A stretch of DNA of 64,000 nt from Escherichia phage 24-32N, in sequence record PV933157.1; one strand, 5' to 3'. The notes beneath the pieces were generated by a model. That model was given only the letters and a program-made list of their open reading frames with translations. It made no database searches and was not told where the DNA came from. Positions 18,378-18,875 of the stretch are shown piece after piece. How positions within the stretch are numbered: the first letter of the stretch is position 1; every line of letters begins with the position of its first letter. Both the position numbers and the translations under genes were made by a program.

Positions 18378-18875
18378 ATGAAACATAGAATTGCCCATGA
18401 CAGGCTTTTACAGCTTGTAAGCTATGACCCTATTTCCGGGATTTTTACTCGTAGGAATACCGGAAAGATATCCGGTTACCTAATGAAGAGCGGTTACGTT
18501 CAACTCCGCGTGGATAGTGTGTTGTACTATGGGCATATTCTTGCATGGTTCTATGTACATGGCGTATGGCCTACGGATAGGATTGACCATAAGGACAATA
18601 TTCGCCATCACAACTGGATAGATAACCTCAGAGAAGCAACTCACATGCAGAATAACCAGAGTGCTGTTTTATCTAAAGCAAACACATCTGGTTTCAAGGG
18701 AGTATCCTTTTCAAAGAAATTAGGTAAATACAGAGCAACCATTTGGGTTAATAGCAAGCAAATCACATTAGGTTTCACGGATAACCCAAGAGAAGCTGCT
18801 GTTCTTTATGATGAGGCTGCTGTAATTCATTATGGTGAATTTGCCAAAACCAATAAGCAATTAGGTCTGCTATGA
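18378..18875 (+). CDS. HNH homing endonuclease with AP2 DNA-binding domain
   Basis: HNH core HKDNIRHHNWIDNLREATHMQN; AP2-like GFKGVSFSKKLGKYRATIWVNSKQITLGFTDNPREAAVLYDEAAVIHYG. Confidence 0.7.
   Translation: MKHRIAHDRLLQLVSYDPISGIFTRRNTGKISGYLMKSGYVQLRVDSVLYYGHILAWFYVHGVWPTDRIDHKDNIRHHNWIDNLREATHMQNNQSAVLSKANTSGFKGVSFSKKLGKYRATIWVNSKQITLGFTDNPREAAVLYDEAAVIHYGEFAKTNKQLGLL

Follow-up and report, generated by a model that had tools for sequence, protein, structure and literature searches.

Introduction

Each time a yeast WHO element homes, it supplies FBA1 with a new 3' end, and the displaced end stays behind as a relic that provides a homology arm (Coughlan et al. 2020, PMC7282813). In phage T4, the free-standing homing endonuclease genes (HEGs) SegF, SegG, SegB and MobE adjoin conserved DNA-metabolism genes; in mixed infections they are passed on through double-strand-break repair, in which the flanks are co-converted, a process known as 'intronless homing' (PMC2988022). 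These are among the described systems closest to the element analysed here, a HEG of Escherichia phage 24-32N (sequence record PV933157.1) at 18378..18875 (+ strand) of a stretch of 64,000 nucleotides, hereafter the window, to which coordinates refer unless another record is named. The gene is free-standing, encodes an HNH-AP2 protein of 165 aa homologous to gp41.1 of phage G7C, and moves within the G7C-like gene pool as part of a cassette of ~572 bp by which the start of the downstream exonuclease gene is replaced.

The source phage belongs to the G7C-like coliphages (genus Gamaleyavirus; N4-like, Schitoviridae). The HEG of G7C was annotated as gp41.1 (YP_004782171.1), a 'putative HNH homing endonuclease', and the term HNH-AP2 is in use for phage genes (PMC2248197, PMC2993671). 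HEG-related variable loci and polymerase-gene insertions were reported in a study of G7C-like phages, in which this locus was not described (bioRxiv 10.1101/542787). The HEG as such is an ordinary gene that has already been annotated; what is new is the anatomy, namely a delimited cassette with a recoded gene start, a relic and the footprints of loss. No description of this architecture in phages was found by full-text literature search, the coverage of which is incomplete, and at a phage locus it appears to be undescribed.

Results

Structure of the cassette

Comparison with the HEG-less phage IME11 placed a cassette of ~567 bp after nt 65 of the gp42-type PD-(D/E)XK exonuclease gene (18872..19852, + strand, 326 aa), with an exact breakpoint. 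The cassette was composed of a 7-bp linker (ACTAGTT, 18371..18377, + strand) at its left edge, the HEG, whose open reading frame (ORF) started with ATG and occupied exactly 18378..18875 on the + strand, and a second copy of exonuclease codons 1-22 (18872..18937, + strand), the start of which overlapped the HEG stop (ATGA). This second copy, referred to as B, serves as the replacement 5' end, so that the exonuclease gene is a chimera of B and the resident gene body. The ancestral 5' end, referred to as A, was left ahead of the linker as a relic at 18309..18371 (+ strand), an open frame of 20 codons (MKITNNHDVSLALAVWLLHG, followed by a stop) which ended 6 nt ahead of the HEG start. The TGA stop of the gp41-like gene upstream (17836..18309, + strand) overlapped the ATG of the relic (ATGA); in phages without the HEG, this stop has precisely the same overlap with the exonuclease ATG. 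The relic was found at every HEG-containing locus examined and carried the backbone-specific polymorphisms of its host phage, and no intact A-type site was left in the window. Two cassette clades were distinguished, the window/EC1-UPM type and the G7C/Mimir124/ECBP1 type, the junction in the window and EC1-UPM being 3 bp shorter than that in G7C, Mimir124 and ECBP1.

The A/B repeat was recovered independently by a repeat search (50 nt, 70% identity, spacing 563). When the 80 ORFs of at least 100 aa were searched by tblastn, the duplication of relic and B (E 2e-8) was the sole strongly significant duplicated gene start, and no other duplicated gene start or HEG paralogue was found within the window. 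A first-pass annotation, made from the sequence alone, had taken the HEG for a typical selfish-element insertion between the DNA polymerase and nuclease genes. The selfish and mobile character is upheld by the results below, but the insertion is not a plain intergenic one, as it lies within the 5' coding region of the exonuclease gene and brings replacement codons 1-22. Likewise, the HEG is situated between the two named genes but does not adjoin the polymerase gene, homologues of gp40 and gp41 being interposed.

The same annotation was right in calling the HEG free-standing, since the gene has its own start and stop and no intron signal was obtained. That the cassette is spliced out of the exonuclease mRNA as a group I intron, or out of the protein as an element akin to an intein, is hardly credible. 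Joining the relic to nt 66 by splicing would, on paper, yield an A-type ORF again, and the term intron has been applied to HNH-carrying insertions in polymerase genes of relatives (bioRxiv 10.1101/542787). However, no Rfam match was obtained for 17800-19400 even at E<=1, the reading frame of the relic is closed by a stop codon, the two clades have junctions that differ by 3 bp, and the cassette carries a complete, selected and translated 5' end with its own ATG, for which an intron would have no need. The group I intron-encoded class was rejected on the Rfam result together with the nature of the ORF flanks, which are two copies of the same 65-nt coding sequence and not split exons. Consensus scans for a promoter or terminator belonging to the HEG itself gave matches at chance level.

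Distribution and mobility of the cassette

The region 17500-20000 was matched by 56 phage records, nearly all at 90-97% identity. Presence of the HEG was scored when a record covered the whole query, the remaining records being without the ORF; by this measure the HEG was present in 12 of the 56 records, representing eight phages (G7C, Bp4, PD38, Uz-1, EC1-UPM, ECBP1, PW8 and Mimir124). It was absent from IME11, the closest sampled backbone (97-100% identity on both sides), as well as from phi G17 and others, with a clean breakpoint. The locus is polymorphic and not universal, and the absence from close relatives that the first-pass annotation had anticipated holds for IME11 and most other G7C-like phages. 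In all eight phages the same gene was found at the same locus in the order relic, HEG and B, with proteins 93-96% identical to that of the window. The window allele differs from the G7C-type records in belonging to the EC1-UPM-type clade, with the shorter junction, and in residing on an IME11-like backbone; those records name only a 'putative HNH homing endonuclease' and mention neither the relic nor the duplication. In the EC1-UPM record (NC_041906.1), the HEG was annotated by RefSeq from an internal start (393 nt, 2487..2879), while the full 498-nt ORF (2382-2879) is intact and encodes a protein 96% identical to that of the window.

An identical HEG protein was encoded on 18 public contigs. 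Ten of these, from at least seven projects, represented seven distinct backbones besides that of the window and differed in the length of gp41 (94, 157 or 171 aa) and in the polymerase gene, which was intact or split by either of two insertions. Across these ten contigs the tract 18366..18937 (+ strand) showed 0-2 mismatches in 572 nt, with flanks only 87-97% identical to the window (3-13% diverged) and the 3' half of gp41 often unalignable. In the alignment of 11 sequences, variable sites numbered 7 in the 63 nt of the relic, 5 in the 572 nt of linker, HEG and B, and 18 in the next 123 nt of the exonuclease gene. Moving outwards, polymorphism returned at 18362 to the left of the cassette and at 18940/18943 to its right, within 4-6 nt of the edges, so that the mobile unit has the same limits as the insert. 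Owing to the hypervariable 3' half of gp41, good homology on the left side of the cassette is often confined to the 63-bp relic.

The window itself offers a further case of discordance. Its backbone was IME11-like up to the relic, only 3 of 209 upstream variable sites being different, and its cassette was EC1-UPM-like, with the left crossover falling within the 63-bp relic. A tract to the right (18938..19250, + strand) departed from the IME11-like backbone, with 91-96% identity against 97-100% on either side, and may represent co-conversion or mosaicism. Judged from these alignments, the history of the element is discordant with that of its flanks, which establishes lateral spread of the cassette.

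Lateral spread could also be effected by ordinary homologous recombination, the cassette being passive cargo that perhaps hitch-hiked on a favoured B-type exonuclease N-terminus, with an inactive or irrelevant endonuclease. HEG-less phages with B-type codons exist, the replication module is highly mosaic throughout in G7C-like phages, and 22 insertion, deletion or replacement loci have been reported for this group (bioRxiv 10.1101/542787), all of which would suit such a course. Nevertheless, we judge it distinctly improbable: a single allele with 0-2 changes per 572 nt on seven backbones besides that of the window, with crossovers at both edges, is hard to obtain without a targeted break, particularly with a left homology arm of only ~60 bp beside the often unalignable 3' half of gp41, and the catalytic residues of the endonuclease are invariant in an ORF under strong purifying selection.

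Origin of the replacement gene start

The peptides of A and B were identical at 16 of the first 17 residues, with identical codons at 4 of 17 positions only. The proportion of differing synonymous sites (pS) between A and B was 0.99 over codons 1-22, compared with 0.13-0.22 further along the exonuclease gene. In all four outgroups (the N4-type AlfredRasser, BaqKoxi, Moo19 and pSb-1) the peptide was of A type (...LLHDEY) or deviated from it by a single residue, whereas B reads ...LVTDDY, and B is therefore derived or foreign. At the DNA level B matched A at 44-46 of 66 positions and A matched other genera at 47-52 of 66, which are similar distances. The B copies of HEG-containing phages differed from one another by 0-7 synonymous and 0-1 nonsynonymous codon differences, and on these counts B is a translated coding sequence under purifying selection. 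By our own estimate, the 4 identical codons among the 16 conserved, degenerate ones do not deviate significantly from the roughly 6 expected; recoding beyond saturation was rejected on this count, and only synonymous saturation is claimed.

An in situ origin of B was considered, in which the 5' end of the exonuclease gene was duplicated in tandem at the insertion of the HEG and B then diverged, perhaps through selection against recombination between the repeats or against self-cleavage. The exact coextension of A and B (nt 1-65) and the difference of 12 of the 16 conserved, degenerate codons are in keeping with this origin, which is nonetheless very improbable in our view. Divergence in situ has to be reconciled with saturated synonymous change beside an adjoining gene part at ordinary pS, no intermediates between A and B were seen, the B copies of both old cassette clades share all 15 diagnostic differences from A, and the fraction of differing codons is about that given by independent codon choice, without excess (own estimate).

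A native donor of B was not found by blastn against 50,697 phage records, by protein-guided and exact-pattern scans of IMG/VR or by one metagenome scan, and throughout these searches B was found only in G7C-like phages. The closest relative of the HEG outside the G7C group was a protein (P0002, 57% identity) encoded in the same slot of a distant N4-like contig (L061), of which the exonuclease was 51% and the polymerase 58-65% identical to the window's proteins. The gene for P0002 overlaps the exonuclease start of L061 and lies in true intergenic space, without a relic. The L061 exonuclease begins ...WLVDDSYDY and is more B-like than A-like, and L061 is the nearest lead towards a donor, although its nucleotide identity to B is only 40/66. 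Ahead of this HEG, at 3940-4000 of L061, there is a strong terminator-like hairpin (GTAGGCCGCAGCCC...GGGTTGCGGCCTAC) with a T-run after it, as well as a ribosome-binding site (GGAG); the HEG of L061 thus seems to be an independent unit of transcription and translation, in contrast to the coupled arrangement in the window.

Genomes with footprints of HEG loss

Four HEG-less genomes were found to have chimeric exonuclease 5' ends. In each, A gives way to B just once in the 5'-to-3' direction, and three different switch points were seen. When scored at the 15 A/B diagnostic sites, NAN33P5 and K57alpha1.2 gave AAABBBBBBBBBBBB, the metagenome contig L060 gave AAAAAAABBBBBBBB and the metagenome contig L059 gave AAAAAAAAABBBBBB. 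The B-type codons 17-21, which lie beside the insertion point, were kept in all of them, although the pattern of the metagenome search selected for this part of B. Going by these patterns, we infer that the three types arose by independent HEG loss or HEG-free repair. NAN33P5 was nearest to the HEG-containing Mimir124 on both flanks, and its B part was 100% identical to that of Mimir124; this pattern fits a deletion of the cassette through recombination between relic and B. The same chimeric products would be left if a break were repaired on a HEG-containing template and the HEG itself were not copied. The exonuclease 5' end of IME11 is pure A-type, and a simple repeat-mediated loss of the HEG is therefore unlikely in that phage, which may instead have come to be without the HEG through replacement by recombination.

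The deposited annotation of OY979416.1 (L009, Klebsiella phage vB_Kpl_K57alpha1.2) is apparently out of register with its sequence, since its minus strand is labelled with portal, spanin, endolysin and tail genes across an evident gp40-gp41-exonuclease-primase replication module.

The HEG protein

The HEG protein matched Pfam HNH_3 (PF13392) at residues 50-93 with 35 bits, above the gathering score of 24.8, and PHROG 99 'HNH endonuclease' at 5e-58; the catalytic motif corresponds to 18525..18656 (+ strand). A match to Pfam AP2 (PF00847) at residues 104-148 (18687..18821, + strand) reached 21 bits (E 4e-4) and remained below the gathering score of 33.3. A precomputed PF00847 match is present in many HEG homologues, many of which carry PF13392 and PF00847 together, and by phmmer against the PDB the AP2 domain of WRI1 was matched with E 0.0036. 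Among 64 homologues D70, H71 and N83 were invariant, and N79 and N92 were at least 90% conserved. We take D70, H71 and N83 to be the equivalents of D74, H75 and N96 of I-HmuI, which have the same Asp-His/Asn active-site pattern.

An AlphaFold2 model built on the 64 homologues had a pLDDT of 95.4. The top PDB match by Foldseek was I-HmuI (1U3E; probability 1.00, E 2e-3, 101 columns), covering the N-terminal and HNH part. The C-terminal part was modelled as three beta-strands (109-112, 117-124 and 127-134) followed by a helix (137-155), as in an AP2-type DNA-binding domain, and was superposed by Foldseek on AtERF1 (1GCC) with a target-normalised TM of 0.75 and an rmsd of 1.6 A over 57 columns at 32% identity; TEM1, WRI1 and ERF96 were likewise matched by it, with a probability of 1.00. 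The HNH-AP2 label is correct, in view of the HNH profile match, the AP2/ERF fold match and the invariant D70, H71 and N83. The HNH assignment of the first-pass annotation was therefore sound by profile, PHROG and fold alike, while its AP2 domain is supported by the fold match and not by the Pfam gathering score. By tblastn, the HEG protein had matches in 2,922 phage records, T7 gene 3.8 (31% identity) among them; outside the G7C group the relatives were at most 57% identical.

The HEG was intact in all five copies that were aligned, with a ratio of nonsynonymous to synonymous divergence (dN/dS) of 0.06-0.11, compared with 0.04-0.07 for the exonuclease gene. By these ratios the HEG is maintained by selection and presumably functional. 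The synonymous divergence (dS) between the two cassette clades was 0.35-0.44, which indicates a long residence of the element in the gene pool.

Selection of this kind would also be expected of a domesticated or beneficial nuclease that spread through an advantage to the phage, such as interference competition, marker exclusion, replication or repair, and not by super-Mendelian homing. Purifying selection on the HEG is as tight as that on the neighbouring exonuclease gene, its residence has been long, and an intron endonuclease that aids virus-virus competition is described in PMC11620839. Weighed against this are the absence of the HEG from most close relatives, including the near-identical backbone of IME11, the independent losses, and a diversity trough that ends within 4-6 nt of the edges, as is expected for break-initiated copying. 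We consider such an explanation of the spread unlikely, although a benefit and homing are compatible and not mutually exclusive.

Neighbouring genes and other HEG sites

Upstream of the gp41-like gene lie an intact gene for a family-A DNA polymerase (DNA polymerase A, 14955..17534, 859 aa) and a small gp40-like gene (17531..17836). The gp41-like gene occurs in forms of 94, 157 and 171 aa, of which only residues 5-86 form a shared domain by PHROG match, and its 3' half (18050-18300) is hypervariable among G7C-like phages: the identity of the window to EC1-UPM, ECBP1, G7C and PhAPEC5 is 44-57% there and above 90% in the adjoining sequence. The exonuclease gene is followed by the primase gene, which was given a TTG start at 19792 in the mechanical ORF list (19792-22002); comparison with relatives indicates that the true start is the ATG at 19849, which overlaps the exonuclease stop (ATGA).

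Mosaic tracts were also seen farther from the HEG. In the primase gene (20150-20550) identity to IME11 fell to 76-85%, while that to U1G, EC1-UPM and ECBP1 was 85-97%, and IME11 returned to 93-98% past ~20550. In the polymerase gene (16500-17000) G7C and NAN33P5 fell to 78-80% around 16800-16850 and ECBP1 fell to 68-73%, while IME11 and EC1-UPM remained at 95-98%.

Two other sites of HEG insertion were observed in relatives. The polymerase gene is split by an insertion with a different HNH gene in L005, L006, L007, L010, L059, L068 and L070; the insertion is annotated as an intron in PhAPEC5, and a non-spliced split polymerase has been reported (bioRxiv 10.1101/542787). The third site is the exact exonuclease/primase boundary, where the window has no HEG; it is occupied in L004 (3850-4338), L005 (3284-3721), L006 (3224-3796), L063 (3496-4011), L064 (4001-4516) and L014 (from 2178). 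One occupant of this boundary, P0014, is an HNH-AP2 paralogue 48% identical to the HEG of the window. No relic or duplicated gene end was found at the boundary HEGs, L063 having only a 7-nt repeat (ATGAGTA) at both junctions, and the idea that the same gene-start-replacing design is used at other HEG sites was rejected on the strength of these paralogues.

Discussion

From the patterns described above we consider it probable that the endonuclease is active or was so recently, that it cuts an A-type site near the insertion point and that B is immune. In a mixed infection, the enzyme would nick or cut the intact A-type sequence of a HEG-less phage, roughly at nt 55-71 of the exonuclease gene, a candidate target that is bounded by the nearest flanking markers still of recipient type. 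For repair from the HEG-containing genome, homology would be provided by the relic on the left and by the exonuclease body (nt 66 onwards) on the right, and the HEG and B would be copied in together. B would restore a complete and translationally coupled exonuclease ORF and at the same time remove the recognition site, thus conferring immunity. Coupling would be preserved by the overlapping or closely spaced stops and starts that lead from gp41 through the relic ORF and the HEG to the exonuclease. The chimeras with A at 5' and B at 3' would result from recombination between the diverged repeats or from HEG-free repair, either of which would keep the B-type codons by the site. The suggestion of the first-pass annotation that a target be sought in a flanking polymerase or nuclease gene thus pointed in the right direction as regards the nuclease gene, the site itself being a predicted one.

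The cassette was probably founded once, by copying from a distant N4-like phage in which the HEG lay directly upstream of the exonuclease gene of that phage. In this founding event, the repair of a break in an A-type gene would have been one-sided, with homology at the right end (nt 66 onwards) and an illegitimate join at the left, so that A(1-65) stayed behind as the relic. One-sided illegitimate double-strand-break repair has been documented for T4 introns as a route to ectopic invasion (PMC2988022).

Several points weigh against this account. Cleavage, target site and immunity are all deduced from sequence patterns. I-HmuI-type HNH enzymes are nickases that act on one strand, and the initiating lesion may accordingly be single-stranded rather than a double-strand break. 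The phage-record, IMG/VR and metagenome scans did not reveal the lineage from which B came. Some of the contigs are metagenome assemblies and possibly chimeric, even though at least seven separate projects are involved; moreover, the pattern used in the metagenome search, by which two of the three chimera types were found, is specific for the 3' part of B, so that B5'/A3' chimeras are undetectable with it. The long residence of the element (dS 0.35-0.44) is compatible with a retained useful gene as well. Finally, the free-standing endonucleases of T4 mostly cut hundreds of bp from their own genes (PMC2988022), and the placement of the cut beside the insertion point may for this reason be wrong.

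More tentatively, the element might be regarded as a natural viral 'cleave-and-rescue' drive, with a predicted cut at its own insertion point, a recoded, cleavage-resistant rescue copy, and chimeras as the resistance alleles made by the drive; our judgement of this proposal falls just on the doubtful side of evenly balanced. If it holds, the element would be the phage counterpart of the yeast WHO elements and of engineered home-and-rescue gene drives.

The relic, the recoded start, the sharp diversity trough and the three chimeras delimit the mobile unit to within a few bases. They narrow the candidate target to ~20 bp (exonuclease nt ~55-71) and the candidate immunity determinant to ~13 nt (nt 51-63), by which a member of the very large HNH-AP2 family is made directly testable. 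To our knowledge, few free-standing HNH endonucleases have known targets. The cassette also accounts for the mosaic 5' end of the exonuclease gene and its surroundings in G7C-like phages, a group used in collections for phage therapy.

Comparison with known systems

The same two-domain architecture is found in the HNH-AP2 family represented by T7 gene 3.8 and the genes of Xanthomonas phages Xp10 and Xop411, for which no target site or gene-end replacement was found in the literature searched. The phage and bacterial HNH-AP2 endonucleases are the proposed source of the plant AP2/ERF domains. I-HmuI of Bacillus phage SPO1 (PDB 1U3E) comes closest in structure over the N-terminal and HNH part, but it is encoded in an intron, has another C-terminal DNA-binding module in place of AP2 and is 24% identical. 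The T4-type free-standing HEGs cut at hundreds to thousands of bp from the gene and give long co-converted tracts (PMC2988022), whereas the tract transferred with the present element ends within 4-6 nt of the cassette, a gene end being replaced and a relic left.

The WHO elements of yeast, together with HO, are the closest analogue of the present element and resemble it in combining an endonuclease gene with a replacement gene end that is far more diverged than the remainder of the gene; in the WHO elements, too, the displaced old end lies as a relic beyond the endonuclease gene and the host gene evolves as a chimera. They are, however, eukaryotic and meiotic, encode a LAGLIDADG-type nuclease derived from an intein and act on the 3' end of FBA1, while the present element belongs to a phage, encodes an HNH-AP2 nuclease and acts on the 5' end of an exonuclease gene. 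The HEG protein, composed of HNH and AP2 and not of the intein type, is not homologous to the WHO/HO proteins, and the element is thus an analogue in mechanism and not a member of that family. Gene-end-replacement homing, so far described for the yeast WHO elements, would be extended by it to bacteriophages.

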